From Clostridia bacterium (GTDB lineage Bacteria > Bacillota > Clostridia > UMGS1840), in assembly GCA_045661305.1 (NCBI GenBank), contig JAZRFJ010000036.1:2379-66378 (forward strand): a stretch of 64,000 bases of DNA. The letters run 5' to 3'. The first letter of the stretch is position 1. Each line of letters opens with the position of its first letter. The translations under genes and the position numbers were made by a program. Of the stretch, positions 50,811-63,408 are shown in pieces. The notes under the pieces were generated by a model. It was not told the DNA's origin. It worked only from the letters and a program-made list of their open reading frames with translations, and did no database searches.

Positions 50811-50901
50811 GGAGAAGTACTCAAGAGGCCGAAGAGGCGCCCCTGCTAAGGGTGTAGGGCGGGCAACCGTCGCGAGGGTTCAAATCCCTCCTTCTCCGCC
50901 A
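50811..50901 (+). tRNA. tRNA-Ser(GCU), CCA encoded; 3' end is the island attachment site
   Basis: Acceptor GGAGAAG/CTTCTCC, anticodon loop CTGCTAA, long variable arm and T-loop TTCAAAT. Confidence 0.9.
50889..50901. repeat. Left 13-bp direct repeat (attL core) TCCTTCTCCGCCA
   Basis: An identical 13-mer recurs at 63396-63408. Confidence 0.6.
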
Positions 50902-50923
50902 TTTATGCGCACAATTGCATAGC

Positions 50924-50957
50924 AAAAAAGAACAGCAAATTCGCTGTTCTTTTTTTG
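50924..50957. terminator. Bidirectional terminator between the tRNA and the recombinase gene
   Basis: Stem GAACAGC/GCTGTTC flanked by A6 and T8 runs. Confidence 0.7.
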
Positions 50958-50962
50958 TACCC

Positions 50963-52576
50963 TTATGTACGCTCAACATTATTCTTAAGGGTAAAAACTT
51001 CAGCAATGTTAAGTTCTATAACGATTCTGTCTTTGTAAACAGTTACGCACTTAACGTACTTATCAATCAACAACTTTTTGTTTTTCAAAGTGCCTTCTTC
51101 AAGCATTTTCTTTGCCTCTCTAAATAATACTTTCAGTCTTTTCTCATCTATTGATAACGAATCTAATTTTTTCTTAAGTTCATCACTATTAGCTTCCAGT
51201 AAAGCTTTTTTTATTTCCAGATCTCTCAATTTTTCTTTCAACGTAGGCGATTGCACATCCATAAGTAAATCGACTATGTGATTTATGTCTCGAACGCATT
51301 TTTTCACTTCTGCTGAGTTAACTTCAAGTTGATGTGCCGTTTCAACATTCTTAGTGCGGACATATTCATTATACCTATCAACAAGCAAAGGCACTGTTTT
51401 TTCATCGAAGATTATATCTGATAACTTTTTAAGTACAATTGCTTCAATTAGTTCTCTTCTGACCTCAGGATTCTTACACTTCATATTGCGATTCCGTTTA
51501 CTGCATCGGTAAGATACATAAAGAGGATGAGTCTCGTTTGCTTTTCTTGAACACCCATTAAACGTACTTCCACACTCACCGCAAACAATTTTATTCGACA
51601 GCAGATAATCCTGTTTAGCAGTGTAACTACCTGCCTTATTTTTACGACTCATTAGTTTCTTTTGAACCTCGTCAAAATCTTCTTTTGATATGATTGCAGG
51701 TACACCTCCTTCAACCCTTATAATTTCGCTGTCGGGTTTAGTTTTATGCCTGTTAAACTTTCCTTCAAAGTTCTTTGATGCTGATTTGTTGTAAGTGTAT
51801 ACACCAGTATATTTCTCATTGTGCAAAATCTCATATAAAGAGTTCTTGCCAAAAGGAAGGCCTCTCTTTGTTGTGTAACCTTTGCTGTTAAGTTCCTTAT
51901 TTATAGAAGTGTAGCTTTCGCCTTCAAGATAACGCTTAAAGATTATACGGACTGCTTCTGCTTCAAATTCATTGATTACTAATTTCATTGTTTGTGGGTC
52001 TACATCGTATCCTAAGCAAGGTTTTCCACCCGTGTGAAGACATTTTGAAGCATTAACACGTAAACCTTTCATAACCTCTCGAGCTAAATTTTTCGAGTAG
52101 TATTCGTTCATTCCCAAGATAACGCTTTCAAGAATAATAGACTCCGGGTCATCGGTCAAATGTTCAACCACAGATAAAAGTGAAACTCCAAACTTTTTAA
52201 GTGCATTTTTTGCAGTTAAAGAAAGGTTTCTGTCTCTCGCAAACCTGTCAAATTTATGCACAATAACTGCGTCAAATTCCTGATTTCTTGAATCAAACAT
52301 CATTCTTCTAAACTCAGGTCTGTTATCCGTTGTGCCTGTAATTGCTTTATCAATATAAGCTCTTGTAACAACATAACCGTTGCTCTCTGCATATGATTTG
52401 ATAGCTATAAGCTGAGCCTCGATGGATTCTTCTCTCTGCATATCAGACGAAAATCTTGCATATGCCACCGCTCTTTTTAGACCGCAATTCTCGTCATACT
52501 GAGCATCCATTATCTGTCTGTAAATATCTGTTTCTTCTATCGGTGTGTTAATAATGTTTATTGTATCTTCGCTCAT
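50963..52576 (-). CDS. Large serine recombinase (resolvase domain, recombinase domain, zinc ribbon, coiled coil)
   Basis: 537 aa with AYARFSSDMQ (catalytic Ser), DRFARD, a recombinase domain, the Cys motif CGECGS...C..C and a long C-terminal coiled coil. Confidence 0.9.
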   Translation of the reverse strand: MSEDTINIINTPIEETDIYRQIMDAQYDENCGLKRAVAYARFSSDMQREESIEAQLIAIKSYAESNGYVVTRAYIDKAITGTTDNRPEFRRMMFDSRNQEFDAVIVHKFDRFARDRNLSLTAKNALKKFGVSLLSVVEHLTDDPESIILESVILGMNEYYSKNLAREVMKGLRVNASKCLHTGGKPCLGYDVDPQTMKLVINEFEAEAVRIIFKRYLEGESYTSINKELNSKGYTTKRGLPFGKNSLYEILHNEKYTGVYTYNKSASKNFEGKFNRHKTKPDSEIIRVEGGVPAIISKEDFDEVQKKLMSRKNKAGSYTAKQDYLLSNKIVCGECGSTFNGCSRKANETHPLYVSYRCSKRNRNMKCKNPEVRRELIEAIVLKKLSDIIFDEKTVPLLVDRYNEYVRTKNVETAHQLEVNSAEVKKCVRDINHIVDLLMDVQSPTLKEKLRDLEIKKALLEANSDELKKKLDSLSIDEKRLKVLFREAKKMLEEGTLKNKKLLIDKYVKCVTVYKDRIVIELNIAEVFTLKNNVERT

Positions 52577-52694
52577 AAATTACACCTCATAAACTATTTT
52601 ATTCTAACTGTCCATAAGTCTTTGGTACAGGTGCATTAGTTTTCTATGGTAAGTATGAGGTTTTATCATTGGTGCAAATATGAGCAAATATGTA

Positions 52695-52808
52695 TTATGC
52701 TGCTTTTTCTTCTGTATACTTGTTATCTACGGAGTAGATAGCTTCAAGCAAAGCTTCAATATCATTTGTTGAGATGTTTACGATAAACTCTGTCTCTCGC
52801 TCTTTCAT
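52695..52808 (-). CDS. Possible 37-codon ORF (MKERETEFIVNISTNDIEALLEAIYSVDNKYTEEKAA)
   Basis: Its ATG overlaps the TGA of the upstream gene (ATGA). It is below the ORF-track cutoff and no homology was recognised. Confidence 0.25.
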   Translation of the reverse strand: MKERETEFIVNISTNDIEALLEAIYSVDNKYTEEKAA

Positions 52809-53200
52809 ATTTTAGTCTCCTTTCTCGATTCTGCATATTTAGCCATTTCAAGAATAACCATTTTTAAAATGGGAGTCAGATTTAAATCTATAATATGGAT
52901 ATCGATGTTGTTTTCAACCGCCAATTCCATAAGTTCCCTATTTTTTCTCGTGTTGCGACTAATCCTATCCATAGATTTTAAAGTTACTGATTTAACATAA
53001 CCTGCTTCCATCAAAATCTTCAAGGATTCTAAAACGGGCTTGTTTGCACCAAACTGTAGCTCGTTTAAAACAACAATGTTTTCTATAATTCCTTCTTTGG
53101 CTAAATACTTTCTGCAAATGTGCTCTTGTTCTCTTAGATTAGTTAAAGCATCTTTGGCAATAGCTTTGGCTGATGTATAAATAACATTTGTTTCCTTCAT
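52805..53200 (-). CDS. Resolvase-catalytic-domain-only protein that appears to lack the Ser nucleophile
   Basis: 131 aa from MKETNVIY (GGAGG RBS). It is collinear with the N-terminal domain of the large recombinase (..MDRISRN.. versus ..FDRFARD..), but YTSAKA replaces YARFSS and there is no DNA-binding domain. Confidence 0.55.
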   Translation of the reverse strand: MKETNVIYTSAKAIAKDALTNLREQEHICRKYLAKEGIIENIVVLNELQFGANKPVLESLKILMEAGYVKSVTLKSMDRISRNTRKNRELMELAVENNIDIHIIDLNLTPILKMVILEMAKYAESRKETKI

Positions 53201-53919
53201 TATTATTTCCTCCAAGTTTTAAGTTTTATAAATGCTTTTGGTGTTTCAGGGTTTTTCTTAAGAACTTGTAGATTTTATCCTATGTATTTTATTTATTAAA
53301 TCTTGCACCTCGCTTTCTTTTAAGTATTGAAGAGCTATAAACTCTGCTCGTGCTTAAAATGATGAATATCTATCGAAACTACAGATTTACGTCCAATTGT
53401 AATGAATTTGTGATATATAACCTGTCGATACCATGCTATATTTTTAACACAACATTCTAAAATTTTCATCAACAGTAGAACGCTCTCAAAAACTTACTTT
53501 TGACAAAATCGCTGTTGCAACATCTTACAGAAATCATATTTGGAGCTTCTTTGACATTACATTTATAACCCTCGATGTTCGAGCGAAACTTACATTATAC
53601 AACAATCCCTGACAAACTATATTATTAACTATGTATCAACTAATTAAACGCTTTTTATCTAATTTAGAAGCATCTAATTGACCAACCTATTAGGAATTTA
53701 GATAGTTTTATTTAGTAACGCCCGTCCCTATTTCTATTATATCCACTCAATAATCATTTTGTGCCACCATTTATTTTTTCTTCAAAACCTTAGGTTTTAA
53801 CCCCTTTTATCCCCAATTATATATTACTTATTTCAGAAATTGATTATAGGAAGCCCATTTTTATATTACGGAATTTCCCCCTTAGGAAAATCGAACCTTA
53901 GGAATCTTAACATAAAAAT

Positions 53920-53984
53920 ATCCACAGTTGGCATTAGTGTGTAGTGCTTTGACAGTTTTGCACACCAGTCCGCCAACTGTGGAT
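53920..53984. terminator. Long hairpin terminator after the 342-aa gene
   Basis: 13-bp outer stem ATCCACAGTTGGC/GCCAACTGTGGAT with T-runs on both strands, 16 nt after the stop codon. Confidence 0.65.
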
Positions 53985-53999
53985 TTTTATATCGACTAA

Positions 54000-55028
54000 T
54001 TATAAATTGAAATCAAGTTTTTCAAATTTTAAGTCATCCCTTCGTTCCACACCAAAAGAATCATCTTTTAATGTATATTCAAATCTTGCAGGCTTTTTAC
54101 AATCACCAGGTATCTCTTTTTCTGCCAAAATGGTGTTATTATAATAGGATGTTTCATCTACTGTTCTAATTGCTATCGTGTTCACAGCCTTGTTACCAAC
54201 AGAGTAAAGCATCTCCTCTACAATGTCGTAATCATTATCATATATAAGAATATAAGCATCCTGATTAGCTAAGATTTTATCCCTTATGTAAGACAAATTC
54301 TTTTTATTGACAAACAACAGTTGTTGTGGCTCGAGCTCTACATTTTCAAGGGTAACCTGATTTATAGCAGTTATTTTTAATGTTCCTTTGTCAGCCGATT
54401 TCTTCAAATCGCGCATCAATGCCTTTTTCTGGAATGTAGAATCAGCTATAATATTAGTCTTGACAGTTGAAAACCATAAATTATAAGATGTGTTATTCCT
54501 GCAAAAGCTGATGTTTGTTTCTGCTGAAAGTCCAAAATCATTAATGCCACTGCTTTCAAAGGCATATTTAAATACAATGTCTCCAAGTATATATATCTGT
54601 GGCTCGTCATTTATCTGAACCTCTGTACGAATATCTCGCCAACTTTCTGCAAAAAACTCAAACCGCAAGAATACACTGATATTCAGCTTTTCTGCCAACA
54701 TTAATGCTTCATTCAATTTCTTACCTGTACGGTCAAGGCAGACAACATAATCAGCGAACATAAAATCGCTTATAAAATTCATTACTATTTTTAGCTTCGT
54801 CATAAACGATAGGTCTTTAATTGTAAAGTTTCCATATTTCGTCTCGAGCCTTTCTCCATCAAGTTTCAGCACACCCTTTTCCTCTGCAATCAGTGCTTTG
54901 ATGTTGTCGTCAAACTCATAAAGTCCTTCTTTTACAGCATTGACGATGTCGATATCATAGAACTGCTCCGGTTCTATCAGTTTCAGATTGTTTAGATGTT
55001 TTTTGTGAGTATATATTTTCACACTCAT
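54000..55028 (-). CDS. Hypothetical 342-aa protein (orphan, island cargo)
   Basis: Clean ORF with an AGGAGG RBS at MSVKIYTHKK and its own terminator. Divergent from the HTH-RM unit. No catalytic motif was recognised. Confidence 0.6.
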   Translation of the reverse strand: MSVKIYTHKKHLNNLKLIEPEQFYDIDIVNAVKEGLYEFDDNIKALIAEEKGVLKLDGERLETKYGNFTIKDLSFMTKLKIVMNFISDFMFADYVVCLDRTGKKLNEALMLAEKLNISVFLRFEFFAESWRDIRTEVQINDEPQIYILGDIVFKYAFESSGINDFGLSAETNISFCRNNTSYNLWFSTVKTNIIADSTFQKKALMRDLKKSADKGTLKITAINQVTLENVELEPQQLLFVNKKNLSYIRDKILANQDAYILIYDNDYDIVEEMLYSVGNKAVNTIAIRTVDETSYYNNTILAEKEIPGDCKKPARFEYTLKDDSFGVERRDDLKFEKLDFNL

Positions 55029-55447
55029 ATAAATTACCTCCTTGTACATTTACCTTATACTAGATAAACGCTAAAATATCAGTTCAGTTATCTTTTTGAA
55101 AAGCTTTTTACCTATATAACCAGTATCACAAACGCACCCATTCAACAGCCTTGAAATTCGATGCGACTTCCTATACAAACATATCTCTACACCTCGAAAT
55201 ATGAATTTTCAAATTTTATTTTTTATAAAAATTTATACTTTGGAATGTACATGATTCTGTATCGTGATTTTTATGTCTACGGATAGGCGTTTTTTCTTTT
55301 GTACATTTTTTTGTTAGGCAGTTGTTGTTAAATATAGATTTAGATAATCAAACAAAATTGAAGTTGAACATTATCTTTATGTTACTCATCATAACAAGAA
55401 TGTACTAAGTGATTTATTACATTATTTTAACAAAATGCAGTTTTATA

Positions 55448-55476
55448 TTGACTTTTTGGGGTATTTATTGTAATAT
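55448..55476 (+). promoter_or_regulatory. Promoter of the HTH-RM unit (TTGACT-17-TAATAT)
   Basis: The hexamers and spacing were read directly. AGTAA/TTACT repeat motifs (55477-55505) follow before the RBS. Confidence 0.6.
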
Positions 55477-55519
55477 AGTAAAGTAGTTAGCTTACTTATT
55501 TACTTTTGGAGGTGATTGA

Positions 55520-55846
55520 GTGGCAAAAAAAGAATACGTAGAAGGAAGTTTCGGTGCATATTTTGTAAAGCTTATTAAAGACCACGATTATTCACAAGCG
55601 AAATTTGCTTCAGATTTAGGTGTATCAAAGACATATCTATTTGATGTGTTCAACGGACGAGTAAAGCCACCCACTCCCGATATGCAAGAACGCATTGTTG
55701 AGCTATTACGCCTGACTGATGAAGAAAAGAATGTTTTTTACAGTAAGGCTGCTGATGGACGGCATGAACTACCCAAAGATATTGTCGAGTATCTTACAAA
55801 TAACCGAGCTGAGATTGATGGTCTCAGAGAAAGAATGAGGGCGTAA
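55520..55846 (+). CDS. XRE-family HTH protein, probable controller (C) protein of the RM gene
   Basis: 108 aa with YSQAKFASDLGVSKTYLFDVFNG (helix-turn-helix). GTG start with a GGAGG RBS. Its stop abuts the RM gene start (TAAGTGATG). Confidence 0.75.
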   Translation: MAKKEYVEGSFGAYFVKLIKDHDYSQAKFASDLGVSKTYLFDVFNGRVKPPTPDMQERIVELLRLTDEEKNVFYSKAADGRHELPKDIVEYLTNNRAEIDGLRERMRA

Positions 55847-58800
55847 GTGATGAAAATAAGTAAGGATAGTATAAAAGAATTAATAGCAATAATGGGATAT
55901 ATACCCGAAGATGGAACTGACAATATTTTCTATAAGAAGTATTCGCAACACAAAGATTATGTTATTCGGGTTAATTTCAACACTTCAAAAATTGAATATC
56001 GCGAGAGTGATATAAAGCCAGAGGATGGCATCCAATGGGGAGATTTAACTACAAGTAATTTTGAAAATTCTGAGAACTTTGTTGTACTTGAGTGCATAGA
56101 CAGGCTGTTAGAAAAAGGCTATGCTCCCAAAAATTTGTATTTAGAATACAAATTTCCATTAGGAAGAAATGAAAAGGGGAAACTAGATATCCTTGTTTTT
56201 GACAATGATGGTAAAGCTTACTTGATGATTGAATGCAAAACCTGGGGTGTTGAATTCGCAAAAGAAGAAAAGAAAATGCTTAAGGATGGTGGTCAACTTT
56301 TCTCGTATTTTGTTCAAGATAAGGCTACTAAGTATTTATGTCTCTATACTTCTCAAAAGAATGAGACAGATATTGAATATAAAAATAATATCATTAAAGT
56401 TGATGAAGCATGGACTGAGTTAACTAACCAAAAAGAGATTCATGATCATTGGAATAAAAACACCAAAGATAATGGAATCTTTGAGGAATGGGCAAATGCT
56501 TATGACGTTGAAATAAAGGCGTTAGTTCGTAGCAGATTGTTACCGCTTACTAAAGATGATAGTGGTAGGATTTTTAACCAATTTGCAGAAATTCTCCGAC
56601 ACAATGTTGTTTCTGACAAACCTAATGCTTTTAACAAGATTCTTAATCTATTTATATGCAAAATCATTGACGAAGATAAGAATGATAACGAACAGGTTGA
56701 ATTTCAATGGTTAGAAGATGATACTGATGAAAGCTTACAAATTAGATTAAATGACCTTTACAAGCAAGGTATGCACAGATTTTTGGATATTGATGTTACT
56801 GACTTTTCAGAAAATGATATTGCCAGTACCTTAGCTGATGTTTCTGATAGCAATGCTCAAAAAGTAATTCGAGATATGTTTGTGAAACTTCGTTTGCAGA
56901 AAAATCCTGAGTTTGCTTTTATTGAAGTTTATGACGATACATCTTTTAAATTAAATGCAAGAGTTGTTCGCGAGGTTGTCGAATTGCTCCAACCATATCA
57001 ATTTAGATACGGACATAAGCAACAGTTTTTAGGCGATTTTTTTGAATTGCTGTTAAATACAAGTATCAAGCAAGAAGCTGGACAGTATTTTACACCTGTT
57101 CCAATTACAAGATATATTGTATCTTCTTTGCCTATAAAAGAGTTGATTGAGCGCAAATTAAAGGCAAATGAAGCTGAAATGTTGCCGTCGGTAATTGATT
57201 TTGCCTGCGGTACAGGACATTTTCTTACCGAGTATATGGATAGAGTTCAATCAATCATAGAAAATGAAATTGATATTAGTAAAGCTAAACCAATAGCCCG
57301 AAAAAAATTGCAGGGATGGATTGACTATGATAAATTTGGTTGGGCTGGTGATTATGTATACGGTATTGATGCTGACTATCGACTTGTCAAATCTTCAAAA
57401 GTAAGTTCATTTCTTAATGGTGACGGAGAAGCGAACATCATTAGAGCAAATGGCCTTGACAATTTTGAAAATTCAAAGGAATATAAGGGGAAACTGAGAC
57501 TTACAAGCAACGAGGACCACAAAGATAATGCACAGTTTGATATTTTAATTGCGAATCCACCATATTCTGTAAATTCTTTTAAATCTACTATAAAAAATGG
57601 CGAAGAATCATTTGAATTATTCAACAAGTTCACAGATAAGAGTTCCGAAATAGAATGTTTATTTATTGAACGAATGAAACAATTGCTTAAAGTTGGAGGA
57701 TATGCTGCAATCATTTTACCAATTACAGTCTTGAGCAATTCAGGAGTATGCATAGCCACAAGAGAACTTTTGCTGAAATATTTTAAAATAGTTGCTATAA
57801 CTGAATTTGGTACTAAAACATTTATGGCAACAAATTCAAATACAGTTGCACTTTTCTTAGAACGTAGAGCAAATACAGACCACAAACTCATACAAAATGC
57901 AGTAAATTCTTTTTTTGACAAACCTAAAGAAAGCACTGTTTTAGGAATTGAAAAGGCATTTAGTAAATATGTTTTAAGTGTATATGAGGATATTTCACTT
58001 GAGGATTATATTTCCTTCGTTCAAAGAACTCCAAACGAAGTGTTCAAAGAACAGGAATTATACAAAGACTATAAGAAATGGTTTGAATCTCAGAGCTTTT
58101 TAAAGAAATTAAAAACAAGCAAAACCTTTATACAAAAAAGCAAAGACGAGCAAGATGATATTATTACTAATTTGTTCTTCGAAAAAATCTTTGAGCTTGA
58201 AAAGGATAGAATGCAATACTTCTTACTTTCGTATGGGCAAAATGTACTTGTTACAAAAGCAAGCAATAAGAAGATAGAAAAACGAATACTCGGCTATGAG
58301 TTTTCTACTCGCAGAGGACATGAAGGAATCAAAATGTTAAAATCGGGAACAAAATTATACGATATCAACAATCAATATAGTCCTGATAAACTAAACTATT
58401 ATGTATACAATGCCTATCTGAAGAATGTTATAGACAGCACAAAAGAATTACATAACATTGTTAGTTCTTCCACTTTAAATGATTTAATTAATTACAAGGC
58501 TGTAATTTTAGAAAAAACGATTAATATTAATGCAACCAAGAAGATAGCTTTAATAAGTAAGTATAAATCATTTCCTTTAGATACAATAGCAAAATTTCAG
58601 GATGGATTATGGAAGGGCGACAAGGGTGAAATGGTTTTAACCAAAGTGTTAAGAAATACGAATTTTAAATCTAATACTGGTCGTCTTGATTTTTCAGACA
58701 TTGCTGAAATTGATGTCGAAGTAGGTCAATTAGAAAGCAGAGTTTTAGAAGATGGAGATATTTTATTAGAAAAATCTGGTGGAAGCCCCACTCAACCTGT

Positions 58801-59131
58801 TGGACGCGTGCGATTTTTTGATGTTGAAGGAGCCGAACAGTATTCATATTCAAATTTCTGCTCTAGAGTACGCGTATTCAACAATGAGTATAATTCAGCT
58901 TATGTTTGGGTAATGCTTAACGAATTTTATTTGTTAGGTGGTACAATTCCATTACAAAATGGTGTAAGGCTATTAAATCTGAAAATGCCTGAATATAAAA
59001 AAGTTAGAATACCAAAGCCACCGATTGAAATTCAAGAAAAAATCGCGAGTCAAGTATTAGAGATTTATAGTGACGGAAAAAACGATGCTTTAGAACGTGC
59101 AAGGACTGTAATAAATAATTACTTGCTCTAG
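55847..59131 (+). CDS. Single-chain restriction-modification-specificity enzyme (Type IIG-like): PD-ExK nuclease, gamma-class N6-adenine methyltransferase, one HsdS-type TRD
   Basis: Nuclease motif D-x13-ECK (GKLDILVFDNDGKAYLMIECKTWG), GQYFTP, motif I VIDFACGTGHF, motif IV IANPPYS, and a C-terminal HsdS-like TRD (residues ~900-1094). The start could be the ATG at 55850. Confidence 0.8.
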   Translation: MMKISKDSIKELIAIMGYIPEDGTDNIFYKKYSQHKDYVIRVNFNTSKIEYRESDIKPEDGIQWGDLTTSNFENSENFVVLECIDRLLEKGYAPKNLYLEYKFPLGRNEKGKLDILVFDNDGKAYLMIECKTWGVEFAKEEKKMLKDGGQLFSYFVQDKATKYLCLYTSQKNETDIEYKNNIIKVDEAWTELTNQKEIHDHWNKNTKDNGIFEEWANAYDVEIKALVRSRLLPLTKDDSGRIFNQFAEILRHNVVSDKPNAFNKILNLFICKIIDEDKNDNEQVEFQWLEDDTDESLQIRLNDLYKQGMHRFLDIDVTDFSENDIASTLADVSDSNAQKVIRDMFVKLRLQKNPEFAFIEVYDDTSFKLNARVVREVVELLQPYQFRYGHKQQFLGDFFELLLNTSIKQEAGQYFTPVPITRYIVSSLPIKELIERKLKANEAEMLPSVIDFACGTGHFLTEYMDRVQSIIENEIDISKAKPIARKKLQGWIDYDKFGWAGDYVYGIDADYRLVKSSKVSSFLNGDGEANIIRANGLDNFENSKEYKGKLRLTSNEDHKDNAQFDILIANPPYSVNSFKSTIKNGEESFELFNKFTDKSSEIECLFIERMKQLLKVGGYAAIILPITVLSNSGVCIATRELLLKYFKIVAITEFGTKTFMATNSNTVALFLERRANTDHKLIQNAVNSFFDKPKESTVLGIEKAFSKYVLSVYEDISLEDYISFVQRTPNEVFKEQELYKDYKKWFESQSFLKKLKTSKTFIQKSKDEQDDIITNLFFEKIFELEKDRMQYFLLSYGQNVLVTKASNKKIEKRILGYEFSTRRGHEGIKMLKSGTKLYDINNQYSPDKLNYYVYNAYLKNVIDSTKELHNIVSSSTLNDLINYKAVILEKTININATKKIALISKYKSFPLDTIAKFQDGLWKGDKGEMVLTKVLRNTNFKSNTGRLDFSDIAEIDVEVGQLESRVLEDGDILLEKSGGSPTQPVGRVRFFDVEGAEQYSYSNFCSRVRVFNNEYNSAYVWVMLNEFYLLGGTIPLQNGVRLLNLKMPEYKKVRIPKPPIEIQEKIASQVLEIYSDGKNDALERARTVINNYLL

Positions 59132-59167
59132 TATTGATGTAAAACAGTAATAATTATATGGAAATAA

Positions 59168-59208
59168 AGAAAATACCGCCAAAGTGCAATTGCTTTGACG
59201 GTATTTTC
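59168..59208. terminator. Bidirectional terminator between the RM gene and the 117-aa gene
   Basis: Stem ATACCG(C)CAAAG/CTTTG(A)CGGTAT with T-rich flanks on both strands. Confidence 0.6.
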
Positions 59209-59235
59209 AATAAGGAGTATTTCCAATAAACTGTC

Positions 59236-59589
59236 TTAGCTGATTTGCCCGGTTGTGAGCATTTTGTGAAAGTCCTTTGCAGCCTTAGCCGCCTGACCTG
59301 TGGTTACGCCCAACCAAAATTCATTGACCACACCTTCAAGCACGACAAGCTTCACTGATTCATTCGCTTTCAGATAGTCAAGAATTCTTAACAACTGTTG
59401 AAATTCAGAATAGCAATCCGATAGGTTAGATATGTAGATTGTATCACCCTCAGATACAACAGTTGCAAGAAATTCTTCAAAGCTGTCTCCATTGCTTGCA
59501 TAAACAGTATCAAGCTCAACGTCTTGGAAAAGTTTATGCTTCTGTTCTCGTTGCTCATCAGTGTTGAACTTAAAATAACCTTTGCGCAT
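59236..59589 (-). CDS. Degenerate resolvase-catalytic-domain-only protein (Ser nucleophile replaced by Asn)
   Basis: 117 aa with a strong GGAGGTG RBS. MRKGYFKFNTDEQ...GDTIYISNLSDC aligns with MKIGYCRVSTPHQ...GDTIIVSEISRIARN of the adjacent recombinase. There is no HTH domain. Confidence 0.55.
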   Translation of the reverse strand: MRKGYFKFNTDEQREQKHKLFQDVELDTVYASNGDSFEEFLATVVSEGDTIYISNLSDCYSEFQQLLRILDYLKANESVKLVVLEGVVNEFWLGVTTGQAAKAAKDFHKMLTTGQIS

Positions 59590-59648
59590 ATTTTTTTCAC
59601 CTCCTCATATTCATAACATCCATAACTATATAAATGCTTATAAATTGG

Positions 59649-60206
59649 TTAACTACGCTGTTTTTCACGCACTCTCTTATACCACGAAGATTTGCTTATC
59701 CCCAAAATTGTCCACGCCTGTGTGGCAGTTATGGCTTTACGTTGCACTTGAGCGTACAATTTCTCAAAATCAGGGCACTCTTTTGGCTTACGCCCCTTAT
59801 AAACTCCATTTGCCTTAGCTATGGCAATACCTTCAGCCTGTCGAGATAAAATATATTCACGCTCTAGCTCAGATATGGCCCCGAAAATCGTAAGTATGAA
59901 TTTCCCCGTAGGGGTAGAAGTATCGATTGCTTCCTTCTGACTTACGAATTCTACTTCTTTTTGGGACAGTATCTCGATAATTTGAAGAAGGTCTTTCGTG
60001 TTCCTTGCTATTCTACTGATTTCTGAAACGATAATTGTATCGCCCTTTCTAGCAAAGTTCAACATTTCTTTAAGAGCAACTCTGTCAGCATTCTTTCCTG
60101 AACACCTGTCAATAAAAACTCGATCCACATCCAAACTTTTTAACAATGTCTCTTGCCGAGCACTATTTTGATGGGGTGTTGAAACCCTGCAGTAGCCAAT
60201 TTTCAT
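59649..60206 (-). CDS. Small serine recombinase (resolvase/invertase family)
   Basis: 185 aa with GYCRVSTPHQ (catalytic Ser), SRIARN and a C-terminal HTH (ITATQAWTILGISKSSWYKRV). Confidence 0.9.
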   Translation of the reverse strand: MKIGYCRVSTPHQNSARQETLLKSLDVDRVFIDRCSGKNADRVALKEMLNFARKGDTIIVSEISRIARNTKDLLQIIEILSQKEVEFVSQKEAIDTSTPTGKFILTIFGAISELEREYILSRQAEGIAIAKANGVYKGRKPKECPDFEKLYAQVQRKAITATQAWTILGISKSSWYKRVREKQRS

Positions 60207-60313
60207 AACTTACAACTCCTTATCTTCAGTATTCCAACACAAACTATTACAATGTCGTTTTATCTGCCGTACATTTGGACTATGAGCCATCCGCACTAAA
60301 ATTAATCGCAATA

Positions 60314-60385
60314 TGTCGTGCAGTTAGGTTTGCATTTCCAATAACCAAACGTGTTCGCAGAAAAAGCAAACCTAACTGCACGACA
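60314..60385. repeat. Perfect 20-bp inverted repeat with a 32-nt spacer
   Basis: TGTCGTGCAGTTAGGTTTGC (60314-60333) and GCAAACCTAACTGCACGACA (60366-60385), between the CHC2 gene stop and the recombinase promoter region. No adjacent T-run. Confidence 0.8.
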
Positions 60386-60393
60386 CACTGCTT

Positions 60394-60720
60394 CTATATG
60401 TAATCTTGTTTCAATTCATCATAAAGTTCTGTAACGGCTTGTTTGAAATCTATTTTTCTTCCGTTCTTGGCAGACCAATATGTGTGTAGGTCAATAACAT
60501 CCCCACCAATACCACAGCCAAAACACTTGAATCTGTTTTTCTGAGAATGATAGTAAAAAGACGGCTCTGTCTCGCTATGAAAAGGACATATAATCGGAGA
60601 ATTCTCTTTCAATGGTCTGTTGCTTCCTTTATAATTAATGCATGGCACAATGTGTTTGTTTACATATTTAAGTACACTATAATTTTCTTTCACATGGTCT
60701 TTCATACCCCAAACTGTCAT
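60394..60720 (-). CDS. CHC2 (DnaG-type) zinc-finger protein
   Basis: 108 aa with CPFHSETEPSFYYHSQKNRFKCFGCGIGGDVIDL, the primase zinc-binding-domain signature. AGGAGG RBS. Confidence 0.75.
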   Translation of the reverse strand: MTVWGMKDHVKENYSVLKYVNKHIVPCINYKGSNRPLKENSPIICPFHSETEPSFYYHSQKNRFKCFGCGIGGDVIDLHTYWSAKNGRKIDFKQAVTELYDELKQDYI

Positions 60721-60892
60721 ATCATCACCTCCTTAAGCCCATATTTTTATAAGTTTCATTTCTTCTCTTATTTCTCATTCTTATAGGTAGATTATAGATA
60801 TTAAGCCCATAAACACAACCTTTAAAAATCCCACCACATCAACACTTATCACCATTTTTACACCACTGTAACTACCACAAACTTTATATAAA

Positions 60893-60970
60893 ATTACAAC
60901 AAATCTTAGAAAAATCCATTCATATAGCAATGTAATCTACAACAATCTTTATAACATTACAACAGATATG
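60893..60970. repeat. Three iteron-like direct repeats (ATTACAACAAATCTT / ATCTACAACAATCTT / ATTACAACAGATATG)
   Basis: The TACAACA cores at 60895, 60938 and 60958 are spaced 43 and 20 bp apart, in the 280-bp gap downstream of the 489-aa gene. Confidence 0.45.
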
Positions 60971-61000
60971 AGAATTTTATAAATATGTCAGAACTAAAAA

Positions 61001-62470
61001 TCAGAAGCCCATATCTTTGAGAAATGCTTCTTCATCCCATTTGTTGCTCTGCTTTAAATTAATTCGTTTATCAAGACAGCTTGTAGTAACTTTGGGAATC
61101 TCGATGTCAAAAGATTGGTGTATCGTTGGAAATAAACTTGCTCCGCAAATGATTTCTTCCATTGCTTTCAGAGCCCTTTTAATGTAGGTGTTTCTTTCAT
61201 TTGCTGTTCTTAGCCCTTCAAGTTTGCTCCTAAACTGTGGTGTGCGTTCAATCAAGGATTTAACACTGATTCCGACATACTTTCGCAGTTCTCCTGCCCA
61301 CAAAAACGACTGCAACAGTTGTTCCGCTAACAGTTCTCCATAAAGATTTCCATTTGCAAACGCGTGTCCTTTCAGCATTAGATTGTGAGTGTGTTCTTTA
61401 GGTTCTGTATCATTTATATTTTCAAAGAGATTGCTTTTTAGCCAATTAAAGTATCTCCCTCCGTAAAGTATGGTTTTTCCATCAAGTGCATTTTTCATAG
61501 GATAGAACATTTCGTGTTCTCCGACTATTGCCACAAGATTTTCATAGCTCTCCAAAATGCTTTTTATTTTCCGCATGTTATTAGCATAAAAGTTTTGATG
61601 AAGAAATTCTGCGATACTCGCTACACTGACGGAGTATTCCTGTTTATTATGGTTCTTACAAACCGTTTTGCCTTTGCAGTGTAACGTGTAAACAGCCTTA
61701 AGTACAGAAAGGTCTATCTTGCTTATCTCATCGTCGAAATCCATATCCACCGGATTGCTGTCTTTTTTCAAGAGCCTTAAAGCAGTTTTAACTTTTGATT
61801 TAATTTGCCTATAAGTCGGCTCGTCAACAAGATTCAATGCATAAGAAAATCCTTTCGCTGTTGGCAACATAAGACTCTGTGCTACATACGGTTTGACCTC
61901 ACGCATTTTTTTAATAATTCGATCGTAAGCACCATAGATTTTTGCTTCAGAATAAAACTCGTCGCACAGAACTTCGGCATTAGTGCCACCAAAAATTACA
62001 CCCGATGTTGTTTTTACATTTTTATCAATCCCATATTTTTCCAATAGTTCAAGAAACATAGATTTGATTTCATCGGCTTTGTCCTGATTGGTGATTACAT
62101 CTTTCAGCACAAAAACAAGCCTAAAACGATTTCTGACCTTGCTACTGCTGAATGTGTCGTATACAATGTTTGGCACCAATCCGCATTTTTTTAAAGCCAA
62201 CAGGACACTTACCTTTGGAATGTGCTTTTCTCCTGCGTTATCAAAATCAAAGAAAAATGCCTGTATTTGAGCAAAGCCTGTTACAGAACAAGCAGGAAAG
62301 ATGATTCGCCCTTCTTCGATACGACCCAGTAAACCTCCAATCTGTATTGTTTCTTCTCTTTTGCCAAAGCCCATCTTCATATTATAAATTGTTTCTGCAA
62401 CCTCTTGATTTGTAGGTTTGCCTGGGAAACGCTTTTCTGATGTCAAAATTGAAATACTCGCCGTGTTCAT
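61001..62470 (-). CDS. Putative replication initiator / primase-polymerase-like protein
   Basis: 489 aa from MNTASISIL (AGGAGG RBS). It has an FFFDFDN acidic DxD-type motif in a beta-rich N-terminal domain and sits next to the iterons and the CHC2 gene. The function is inferred; only the ORF itself is solid. Confidence 0.4.
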   Translation of the reverse strand: MNTASISILTSEKRFPGKPTNQEVAETIYNMKMGFGKREETIQIGGLLGRIEEGRIIFPACSVTGFAQIQAFFFDFDNAGEKHIPKVSVLLALKKCGLVPNIVYDTFSSSKVRNRFRLVFVLKDVITNQDKADEIKSMFLELLEKYGIDKNVKTTSGVIFGGTNAEVLCDEFYSEAKIYGAYDRIIKKMREVKPYVAQSLMLPTAKGFSYALNLVDEPTYRQIKSKVKTALRLLKKDSNPVDMDFDDEISKIDLSVLKAVYTLHCKGKTVCKNHNKQEYSVSVASIAEFLHQNFYANNMRKIKSILESYENLVAIVGEHEMFYPMKNALDGKTILYGGRYFNWLKSNLFENINDTEPKEHTHNLMLKGHAFANGNLYGELLAEQLLQSFLWAGELRKYVGISVKSLIERTPQFRSKLEGLRTANERNTYIKRALKAMEEIICGASLFPTIHQSFDIEIPKVTTSCLDKRINLKQSNKWDEEAFLKDMGF

Positions 62471-62481
62471 GATTACTCCTC

Positions 62482-62721
62482 CTAATATAATAATAAATTT
62501 TCTGTACATTTAAATCTGCAAATGCCGTTGCGGAATTTTAATGTATTCAATACATATATCATATGTGGGAGTTCCTGCTCAAACGCTTGGGTAACGTATG
62601 CAACATTGTAAAATTTGTATTGCTCATAAATATCGAGCAATTTAATGTCAACATCAGGAGTCATAAGGGCATAAAAAAGCCCTGACAGCACAAAGTCTGT
62701 CAAGGCTTCAATATTGAGCAT
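62482..62721 (-). CDS. Hypothetical 79-aa protein
   Basis: ORF packed between two genes (6-nt and 11-nt gaps). Weak RBS and no recognised motif. Confidence 0.4.
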   Translation of the reverse strand: MLNIEALTDFVLSGLFYALMTPDVDIKLLDIYEQYKFYNVAYVTQAFEQELPHMIYVLNTLKFRNGICRFKCTENLLLY

Positions 62722-62727
62722 ATTATT

Positions 62728-63285
62728 TTACTTTTTCTTTATCTTACTTTTTTTACTCGGCTTTCCTTCTTTTTCAACCTGTTCCTGGGATGTGGGAATT
62801 TCGTTATCCACTTTATCATCTATTTTATCTTCTGCTTGTTCAATCGGTGTAGGTTCGTTATTGATTAACAACTCAAACCCCGAAAAATCCTCTTCATTTT
62901 TAACCTGTAAAGGATGTGTCGCACAAATATTTTCCATTTCTTCAATTGTTTCCGAATCGAGTAAACAAACAGCTTTTTCATCTGTTTTCAAGCCTTCGCT
63001 TACAACATGTGCAGTTTTTATAAGTTCTTCTACCGTTTTAGAATTCGATGTGTAATTTCCACGACTTTCAACGTTGACCAATTCATCCTTCTTTAAGAAA
63101 TAAAGTACGAACTGTAACTCCTTTTTCAACACTGTCGTTTTTTTATCACTCAGCACACGAGCCAGTTCCTCTGTGATAATCATACGACTTTCAGCCCCTT
63201 TAACGATGTCTGCATTTTTCTTTGCGGTATCGGATATTTCCAATAGTACCGCTAACTTCTCTTGTTCTTTTCTTAAGTTTGCCAT
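62728..63285 (-). CDS. Hypothetical 185-aa protein with a lysine-rich acidic tail
   Basis: Start placed at MANLRKEQEKL with a GGAGG RBS; the longest ORF starts at 63360. First gene of the minus-strand module next to attR. Confidence 0.55.
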   Translation of the reverse strand: MANLRKEQEKLAVLLEISDTAKKNADIVKGAESRMIITEELARVLSDKKTTVLKKELQFVLYFLKKDELVNVESRGNYTSNSKTVEELIKTAHVVSEGLKTDEKAVCLLDSETIEEMENICATHPLQVKNEEDFSGFELLINNEPTPIEQAEDKIDDKVDNEIPTSQEQVEKEGKPSKKSKIKKK

Positions 63286-63395
63286 TGTAATACCTCCTAA
63301 AATAGTGATTTCACCATATAATACCATAGAGCCAAAATACAATGAATCCACTAAAATCAAGAGATGTAGGCTGTTGAGAGCATATTCGGCAACGT

Positions 63396-63408
63396 TCCTT
63401 CTCCGCCA
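63396..63408. repeat. Right 13-bp direct repeat (attR core) TCCTTCTCCGCCA
   Basis: Identical to 50889-50901. Followed by CCATTT and a terminator hairpin. Confidence 0.6.

Follow-up and report, generated by a model that had tools for sequence, protein, structure and literature searches.

Stand-alone serine-recombinase catalytic cores without a nucleophile in an integrative island of a Clostridia bacterium

Serine recombinases are textbook enzymes and important tools of genome engineering. In nature they are known to be controlled by accessory DNA sites, by proteins that bend DNA and by directionality factors, whose folds are unrelated to theirs. The directionality factors of large serine recombinases (LSRs), among them Bxb1 gp47, phiC31 gp3, SPbeta SprB and TP901-1 Orf7, are small, structurally diverse, non-catalytic accessory proteins. 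Those characterised structurally bind DBD2 and the coiled coil of the recombinase; we know of none among them that binds the catalytic domain, and no described directionality factor with a resolvase fold was found in the literature. Resolvase cores can have a non-catalytic role: at the accessory sites of the Tn3, gamma-delta and Sin synaptosomes they act as regulatory or architectural subunits via core-core contacts; there, one full-length protein, bound to DNA, supplies both the regulatory and the catalytic subunits. The Tn5 Inh protein and the KP repressor of the P element are truncated, DNA-binding-deficient transposase inhibitors; the gene of the enzyme itself encodes them, and their sequence does not differ from that of the enzyme.

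The window analysed here is a stretch of 64,000 nucleotides from a Clostridia bacterium (contig JAZRFJ010000036.1). It contains a mobile island of 12.5 kb (50889-63408), bounded by 13-nt direct repeats, with two small resolvase-like proteins, A and B, and two larger serine recombinases:

50811-50901, plus strand: tRNA-Ser(GCU), found by ARAGORN and as an Rfam tRNA
50889-50901: left direct repeat (direct repeat D14), TCCTTCTCCGCCA, the last 13 nt of tRNA-Ser(GCU)
50963-52576, minus strand: LSR, 537 aa, the last island gene, with intact catalytic motifs
52805-53200, minus strand: protein A, 131 aa, a stand-alone serine-recombinase catalytic core without nucleophile and DNA-binding domain
59236-59589, minus strand: protein B, 117 aa, a stand-alone resolvase catalytic core without nucleophile, catalytic Arg and HTH
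59649-60206, minus strand: small serine recombinase of the resolvase/invertase type, 185 aa, with intact catalytic residues and C-terminal HTH
63396-63408, plus strand: right 13-nt direct repeat (direct repeat D14)

Proteins A and B are backbone genes of a family of integrative islands of about 12 kb, which carry a replication module (primase-like and CHC2) and defence-type cargo: a Type IIG restriction-modification enzyme in this island and Fic, helicase and methylase genes in its relatives. The related loci used for comparison are metagenomic contigs, most of them short. The LSR matches the Pfam domains Resolvase, Recombinase and Zn_ribbon_recom and keeps the motifs ARFSS and DRFARD; its omega is 0.04 against the LSR of the related locus L028. 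The small resolvase (Pfam Resolvase, 1.1e-40; DNA invertase in PHROG) has the invariant residues R7, S9, R65 and R68 and keeps CRVST and SRIARN. Both neighbours thus appear to be active, as proposed in a preliminary description of this DNA, and each dead core shares an operon with an apparently active serine recombinase. The arrangement of A and the LSR resembles that of CcrA and CcrB in SCC elements, where two genes of the serine recombinase family likewise share an operon at one end of an island that replicates. However, CcrA and CcrB are both full-length and have the nucleophile, whereas A consists of the core only, and the best NCBIfam match of the LSR, CcrB, stays far below its cut-off (175.6 bits against 900).

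The preliminary description had read A and B as resolvase domains that have lost the nucleophile, and both minus-strand reading frames were recovered at the coordinates given there. Gene A starts with an ATG at 53200, has a GGAGG 8 nt upstream and is the first gene of an operon that continues with a 37-aa ORF and the LSR. The protein matches the Pfam family Resolvase (PF00239) with 30.4 bits, over the gathering cut-off of 23.3; the match covers profile positions 15-118 only, and the nucleophile segment is therefore skipped. Its AF2 model has a pLDDT of 88.4, and the top Foldseek matches in the PDB are all serine-recombinase catalytic domains (IS607-type TnpA and the TP901-1, Bxb1 and SPbeta integrases). 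Aligning the A family profile to the TP901-1 integrase places Ser10 at the position of the Arg (R8) and Lys12 at that of the nucleophile, which reproduces the proposed pairing of YTSAKA with YARFSS and the loss of both residues. Across the A family the nucleophile column reads K/K/D/V/Q/R/D. The DRxxR-type motif is present as DRISR in the window allele, as claimed, and is kept in only three lineages, having been lost in 4/7. The proposed likeness of A to its own LSR needs correction: the identity is only about 26% (BLASTP E 0.39), and the N-terminal domains of unrelated LSRs are closer (38%). The A family is rare (7 clusters). Helix E has its full length in the window allele, where the segment ILKMVILEMAKY is close to ILESVILGMNEY of the LSR; some other alleles are only 116-121 aa long with a truncated helix E, of which P0029 and P0031 retain about 10 residues.

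Gene B starts with an ATG at 59589, preceded by GAGGAGGTG, so that the strong ribosome-binding sites proposed for both genes are present. Its match to PF00239 is sub-threshold (13.1 bits, E 0.1); the profile search that had been suggested therefore identified A, and for B the fold was established by hhalign and Foldseek instead. BLASTP relates B to the neighbouring resolvase with an E of 3e-5, hhalign relates the B family to the partner resolvases with 93% probability (E 3.4e-7), and Foldseek matches 1-24 of the AF2 model (pLDDT 85.9) are all Sin, gamma-delta or Tn3 resolvase. Lys7 occupies the Arg position and Asn9 the Ser position, and Asp58 and Ser61 stand at the two later Arg positions, confirming the substitutions and the loss of DRxxR described before. 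In 23 homologues the nucleophile column reads N/H/G/S/Y. Helix E is largely missing by hhalign, and the AF2 model puts a C-terminal helix at residues 98-113. About 43 clusters make up the family; their proteins have 117-118 aa, and none of the clusters has a name.

A and B share the PF00239 fold and the element order b1-aA-b2-aB-b3-aD-b4, with a homology that is detectable by sequence. B is like the gamma-delta, Tn3 and Sin resolvases and A like the N-terminal domains of LSRs, e.g. of the TP901-1 integrase (3bvp) and TnpX (2mhc). Unlike active serine recombinases, they are encoded by separate small genes, have no Ser nucleophile and no DNA-binding domain, and helix E is shortened in some A alleles and, by hhalign, largely deleted in B. 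Compared with R8, R68 and R71 of gamma-delta resolvase, B lacks all three arginines; A has Ser10 at the R8 position and keeps DRISR in the window allele. Since the nucleophile and activating arginines are gone, neither protein is predicted to be able to cut DNA. No Pfam domain beyond the core was found in A or B, and both end at or within helix E; as the preliminary description had noted, they have no sequence-specific DNA-binding domain.

The loss of all catalytic residues and of the DNA-binding domains might indicate that A and B are functionless, decaying remnants of duplicated recombinase genes, and the apparent relative P0037 does sit among LSR pseudogene fragments. However, the frames are open at conserved length in about 43 (B) and 7 (A) clusters down to 30-37% identity, B has an omega of 0.09-0.14 and A one of 0.19-0.42, the ribosome-binding sites are strong, and both proteins have confident AF2 folds. 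In A, the core strands are conserved, and the variation lies in the loops and helix E. Decay is very improbable on this evidence and close to refuted; the two genes are intact, under purifying selection, and encode stand-alone catalytic cores. No characterised example of an A-type or B-type protein was found in the open literature, in line with the preliminary description.

The resolvase-B operon is flanked by two further features:

59169-59208, minus strand: intrinsic terminator with a 16-bp stem and a T run, directly after gene B, at the end of the operon
60308-60391, no strand assigned: candidate res site, an inverted repeat (I1) with 30-nt arms and a third related motif pair towards the resolvase gene

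The order is therefore res-like site, resolvase, B and terminator. The res-like repeat is also conserved in L001 and L032, where the differences are compensatory, and the window has no further copy of the motif. B directly follows the resolvase in all seven contexts (the window, L001, L002, L003, L028, L032 and L033), and its omega matches that of the resolvase (0.12). Among approximately 400 genomes of the class, an intact B was found only in G000 and G216, both of which bear the island with an intact resolvase-B pair; G163 has a partial B match only, cut by the contig end. No B-like gene was detected downstream of any of the 28 nearest out-group resolvases. B is thus adjacent to its resolvase, lies with it in one predicted operon and is restricted to its clade, which makes it a plausible dedicated partner of the adjacent resolvase.

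The neighbourhood of A shows a different pattern. The operon and its upstream region contain the following features:

52695-52808, minus strand: acidic ORF of 37 aa, with its start codon overlapping A's stop codon (ATGA)
53201-53999, minus strand: gene-free leader of about 0.8 kb upstream of A
54000-55049, minus strand: protein of 349 aa, without a function assigned by match; it lies next to A, on its upstream side, in every related island

The leader contains a promoter-like site (53299-53272) that is conserved before all A alleles, and a bidirectional hairpin at 53912-53992 (I6) is the probable terminator of the 349-aa gene. Every related island has a gap of 0.8-1.0 kb here. The 349-aa protein has no match in Pfam, PHROG or NCBIfam; in L004, L007-L010, L026 and L028 a homologue is found upstream of A, and eight contexts share the series 349-aa gene, gap, A, small ORF(s) and integrase. 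Within this constant frame the A alleles are exchanged: in islands with 96-97% identical LSRs, the A alleles are only 35-58% identical, with breakpoints at the edges of gene A. The window and L028 have 100% nucleotide identity over 53300-59750, and the 37-aa ORF and the LSR are 97% and 96% identical, whereas A has 45% amino acid identity. Likewise, L010 and L025 differ in A (35% identity) with LSRs that are 96.7% identical. In one lineage, A precedes a Xis-like gene and a tyrosine integrase, and A is absent from one LSR-bearing island with the same backbone (L032, the island of G216). On this comparative evidence, A is a hypervariable, exchangeable cassette before the integrase. The hypervariability could also come from old alleles that were shuffled by recombination under relaxed constraint, not from selection for new specificities.

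These patterns bear on the earlier proposal that both dead cores use the normal subunit interfaces to assemble with the recombinase next to them and then serve as directionality factors, dominant-negative inhibitors or decoys within the synaptic tetramer. The shared operons, the closeness of the helix-E segments of A and the LSR and the co-inheritance of B with its resolvase are consistent with this idea. Yet variation in A does not track that in the LSR, one lineage has A with a tyrosine integrase, and one LSR island is without A; helix E, the interface that a tetramer decoy needs, is cut in the shorter A alleles and mostly deleted in B by hhalign; and the binding sites of the known LSR directionality factors also count against it. 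We regard co-assembly of both cores as unlikely. What A has in common with LSR directionality factors is that it is a small protein encoded in the same element as an LSR; unlike them, it does not follow one cognate integrase and is dispensable in one lineage. The 37-aa ORF is 89-97% identical in L005, L006 and L028, has an omega of 0.06-0.08 and co-varies with the LSR, and is itself a candidate small directionality factor; other lineages carry ORFs of 63-68 aa in its place. The analogy to Tn5 Inh and KP is possible, as a version of the enzyme that does not bind DNA and could form mixed inactive oligomers; however, A and B have genes of their own that have diverged strongly, and the helix for oligomerisation appears to be shortened in B and in some A alleles. 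The recurrent pairing with an active recombinase, and the regulatory role proposed from it, are accordingly plausible for B, where the pairing is strict, and weakened for A, which is swapped or missing, at least as regards a dedicated LSR subunit or directionality factor.

Alternatively, the resolvase-like fold may have been re-used for a job unrelated to the recombinases of the island, the position of the genes merely reflecting their origin by duplication. Such a job might be the binding of phage or host proteins (in defence, anti-defence or inter-element competition) or the control of island replication. A is hypervariable and swapped as a cassette, like immunity and specificity genes, it is independent of the integrase type, and the island carries defence cargo; a role of A entirely outside recombination, in a protein missing from one lineage, could fit. 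The strict and clade-specific pairing of B with its resolvase is hard to explain without a functional link. For the two proteins together, we consider re-use, with any of these jobs, to be rather improbable.

The explanation that we tentatively prefer, and which we rate as possible but short of probable, draws on gene order and evolutionary pattern and takes B as an accessory subunit of the resolvase and A as an exchangeable cassette that is not a subunit of the cognate LSR. B would have arisen from the small resolvase of the island, keeping the core and a linker remnant (GVxxG...DFxKL) while losing the HTH and most of helix E. Translated from the resolvase transcript, it would act as a non-catalytic accessory subunit that touches the catalytic core of the resolvase and gates or shapes its action at the upstream res-like site, with multimer resolution of the excised, replicating island as the likely role. 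Without helix E (hhalign) the canonical dimer interface would be unavailable, and a core-core contact with the resolvase is a guess. In contrast to the accessory-site subunits of Tn3, gamma-delta and Sin, B would serve as a dedicated, non-DNA-binding paralogue. A, although the first gene of the integration operon, would be a fast-evolving specificity cassette in front of whichever integrase module the island has. It would most likely bind protein and thereby modulate the decision between excision and integration. Its partner would be diverse and lie outside the conserved integrase, and A may thus act as a sensor or anti-activator. The 37-aa ORF, or the 63-68-aa ORFs of other lineages, would be a better candidate for the directionality factor than A.

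A wider reading, which we think quite doubtful, would see in nucleophile-less stand-alone cores a class of protein regulators, recurrent and so far undescribed, that control the recombination of mobile elements in trans. B-type proteins would then be fixed gating subunits of small resolvases, and A-type proteins hypervariable sensors, following the logic of the SaPI Stl repressor at the protein level. A would keep integration and excision off until a particular phage or competitor protein binds, so that an allele swap would re-tune which trigger mobilises the island.

If A or B modulates recombinase activity, it would provide a compact, genetically encoded switch for serine-recombinase tools. 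B, a conserved, dead, core-only paralogue in a resolvase operon, would represent a new kind of protein-level control. The divergence of A, 40-65% between islands with near-identical integrases or with no other difference, suggests that diversifying selection acts on a specificity determinant in an island with defence cargo; A could show how these islands detect the time to move.

The two nucleophile-less resolvase-core proteins, A (131 aa) and B (117 aa), are both encoded in an island of 12.5 kb bounded by 13-nt direct repeats, TCCTTCTCCGCCA. The left copy of this repeat is the 3' end of tRNA-Ser(GCU). The host has a small genome (1.37 Mb, 34% G+C, 47 contigs). Related islands were found in other assemblies, mostly on short metagenomic contigs. 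The genes of the island are listed here in minus-strand order.

Features of the island
50889-63408: island, 12.5 kb
minus strand, first: 210-aa protein, then 79-aa protein
minus strand, next: 502-aa primase-like protein and CHC2 zinc-ribbon protein
60207-60393: res-like array upstream of the resolvase gene (L001 2162-2344; L032 8305-8489)
59649-60206, minus: small serine recombinase of 185 aa (resolvase)
59236-59589, minus: B, 117 aa
opposite strand, after B: cargo, an HTH controller and a 1094-aa Type IIG restriction-modification enzyme
54000-55049, minus: 349-aa protein without assigned family, conserved backbone gene
53201-53999: gene-free stretch (785 nt) before the integration operon (L010 4817-5872; L032 13078-13875)
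52805-53200, minus: A, 131 aa
52695-52808, minus: acidic 37-aa ORF, ATGA overlap with the A stop, just upstream of the LSR gene
50963-52576, minus: large serine recombinase of 537 aa (LSR)

In a genome of the same family (L072, G019:C5:132500-147500), a search for empty sites showed tRNA-Ser(GCU) to be occupied by another island, about 12.5 kb long; it carries genes for large secreted proteins and a tyrosine recombinase fragment, has a flanking repeat of about 50 nt and is uninformative on A or B. The tRNA-Ser(GCU) gene is an integration hot spot.

The preliminary description regarded A and B as dead, truncated paralogues of active recombinases encoded beside them. The catalytic motifs are intact in both neighbours, the LSR beside A and the resolvase beside B, and these are apparently active. 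The A gene starts with the ATG at 53200, preceded by a GGAGG ribosome-binding site. A matches the Pfam Resolvase family (PF00239) with 30.4 bits (gathering cut-off 23.3) at profile positions 15-118 only, a range that leaves out the nucleophile segment. Comparison of the A family profile with the TP901-1 integrase places Ser10 at the position of the catalytic Arg and Lys12 at that of the Ser nucleophile, showing that both residues are lost, as had been aligned before. The AlphaFold2 model of A is confident (pLDDT 88.4) with the element order b1-aA-b2-aB-b3-aD-b4-aE, and its Foldseek matches in the PDB at E <=0.001 are serine-recombinase catalytic domains, one of which (3lhk) was deposited as a putative DNA-binding protein. 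The stated collinearity of A with its own LSR is not seen by direct BLASTP (E 0.39) and is supported by the profile and fold evidence instead. A relationship between A and B was not detectable. No domain beyond the resolvase core was found in either protein, which agrees with the reported lack of a DNA-binding domain.

For B, Pfam by itself is insignificant (E 0.1), but the protein aligns with the adjacent resolvase (E 3e-5), and hhalign relates the B family to the partner-resolvase family with a probability of 93% (E 3.4e-7). The top 24 Foldseek matches of the AlphaFold2 model (pLDDT 85.9) are exclusively Sin, gamma-delta and Tn3 resolvases; a search of PDB sequences with the B profile found no resolvase, in contrast to hhalign and the fold search. 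Lys7 replaces the catalytic Arg and Asn9 the Ser, and Asp58 and Ser61 stand for the two later arginines, bearing out the substitutions described earlier. In the hhalign alignment the C-terminus of B, GVTTGQAAKAAKDFHKML, pairs with the resolvase linker just past helix E, GVYKGRKPKECPDFEKLY. On this alignment B resembles a resolvase copy from which the HTH and the greater part of helix E have gone, with some uncertainty on where the gap falls, as AlphaFold2 predicts a C-terminal helix at 98-113. The sequence upstream of the B start is GAGGAGGTG, and a strong terminator directly follows the gene. Omega is 0.19-0.42 for A and 0.09-0.14 for B, the latter the same as for the partner resolvase (about 0.12). 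The A and B genes are not debris.

An exhaustive phmmer search of 1.8 billion representative proteins yielded as relatives of A six short proteins and the window's own cluster only, together with a few full-length LSRs that share 38% identity with A in the N-terminal domain. A is much rarer than B, whose family of 117-118-aa proteins forms about 43 clusters at the 90% identity level and reaches down to about 30% identity, all of them unnamed and none with a Pfam call. In 25 genomes of the order and about 400 of the class no further short A proteins were found, only full-length LSRs. A seventh short phmmer match, P0037 (116 aa, with a Resolvase match), was dropped from the family since it lies among LSR pseudogene fragments: at L034 (1773-3622) it is one of four short ORFs bearing Resolvase and Recombinase fragments of a broken LSR. 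An ancestral tandem-LSR arrangement as the origin of A was considered; the locus of P0035, the LSR closest to A, gives no hint of it and belongs to an unrelated element that carries FtsK-like and DUF2637 genes. Conservation within A is highest in the core strands, and variability is greatest in helix E and the loops of the former active site.

What accompanies A most constantly is a member of the 349-aa family plus the long non-coding gap. The 349-aa protein is found in all related islands with 24-87% identity, always next to the gap and A on their upstream side; most relatives have a conserved 92-aa gene before it, and this gene is missing from the present island. The gene-free stretch follows the 349-aa-family gene in every related island, even in those without A, measures 0.8-1.0 kb, shows 100% identity in the comparison of the window with L028 and has no match in Rfam. 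On the other side, the 37-aa ORF shows translational coupling to A, with 89-97% identity in related islands and an omega of 0.06-0.08. It varies together with the LSR and is a better candidate than A for a small directionality factor; in other lineages its position is taken by a 63-aa ORF or an Xis-like 68-aa ORF.

Identity between islands, by segment
window and L028 (GCA_045655325.1, same tRNA-Ser site): DNA of 53300-59750, 100% nt; A, 45% aa (about 65% nt); 37-aa ORF, 97% aa; LSR, 96% aa (dS 0.44, dN 0.016)
window and L005: first 300 aa of LSR, 96.7% aa; A, 58% aa
L010 and L025: LSR, 96.7% aa; A, 35% aa

Between the window and L028 the drop in identity is confined exactly to the A gene, and identity is regained beyond it. 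In a second lineage, represented by L010 and L025 (order: A, 233 aa, 63 aa, LSR of 515 aa), DNA similarity is restored 25 nt past the A stop codon. The promoter-like region 5' of A is kept across alleles, so essentially only the A coding sequence has been exchanged. Furthermore, at L008 and L009 (two independent runs) an A protein of 43% identity precedes an Xis-like HTH protein of 68 aa and, after it, a tyrosine integrase matching Phage_int_SAM_3 (2.3e-13) and Arm-DNA-bind_4. The G216 island (L032) has the same backbone including B and no trace of A; the slot between its 349-like and 233-like genes is an 800-nt gap. Co-evolution of A and LSR was also considered from LSR amino-acid differences that, when islands carrying different A alleles are compared, cluster in the N-terminal 35-residue tail, a signal judged too weak.

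The contig of L028 (JAZOOY010000041.1) shares with the window (53300-59750) a block of 6.4 kb, about 100% identical, within which lie B, the 349-aa gene, the HTH gene and restriction-modification cargo, and the resolvase gene's 3' part; its flanks (5' half of the resolvase gene, A and LSR) are 73-98% or about 60% identical. In their sequence the islands are strongly mosaic. At L007 (4613-5102) an A allele of 47% identity (P0030) is directly followed by a fragment matching LSR residues 365-412 at 96%. Either a deletion has apparently taken out the 37-aa ORF and the N-terminal two thirds of the LSR, or this contig, present in two samples, is mis-assembled.

A is thus decoupled from the LSR sequence, can be paired with a tyrosine integrase and, in one lineage, is dispensable, which argues against a cognate LSR subunit, a decoy or a directionality factor; the proposal that it is a regulatory partner of the LSR is weakened. 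A may have a role outside recombination. Its cassette-like hypervariability is expected for a specificity or immunity determinant, and we therefore lean towards A being a protein-binding modulator of the excision/integration decision with a variable partner.

The same proposal fares better for B. In all seven contexts with enough sequence (the window, L001, L002, L003, L028, L032 and L033) the resolvase gene is followed by B at a spacing of about 35-60 nt, and the cargo 3' of B varies (Fic, helicase and methylase genes, or restriction-modification genes). A sample of about 400 genomes from the class has intact B in just two, G000 and G216, and these are the ones whose resolvase-B pair is intact; in G163 a partial match is cut by the contig end. 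No B-like ORF lies downstream of any of the 28 closest out-group resolvases. As the preliminary description had known of no characterised example, so stand-alone natural nucleophile-less resolvase cores acting with recombinases were not found described in the open literature (CC-licensed PubMed Central and bioRxiv, including recent LSR directionality-factor surveys).

Upstream of the resolvase gene lies the res-like array, an inverted repeat with 30-nt arms, GTGCMGTTAGGKTTGC in inverted orientation, and then a third related motif pair. The repeat is also present in L001 and L032, in the latter with matching differences in both arms. No other copy of the motif occurs within the 64-kb window, which makes a DNA-inversion switch unlikely; the array is more in keeping with a res site for multimer resolution and is probably the recombination site of the resolvase. 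Taken together, the constant adjacency, the clade restriction and the matching omega make a dedicated non-catalytic partner of the resolvase the most economical reading of B. We favour a mechanism in which B would contact the catalytic core of the resolvase and thereby gate its action at the res-like site.
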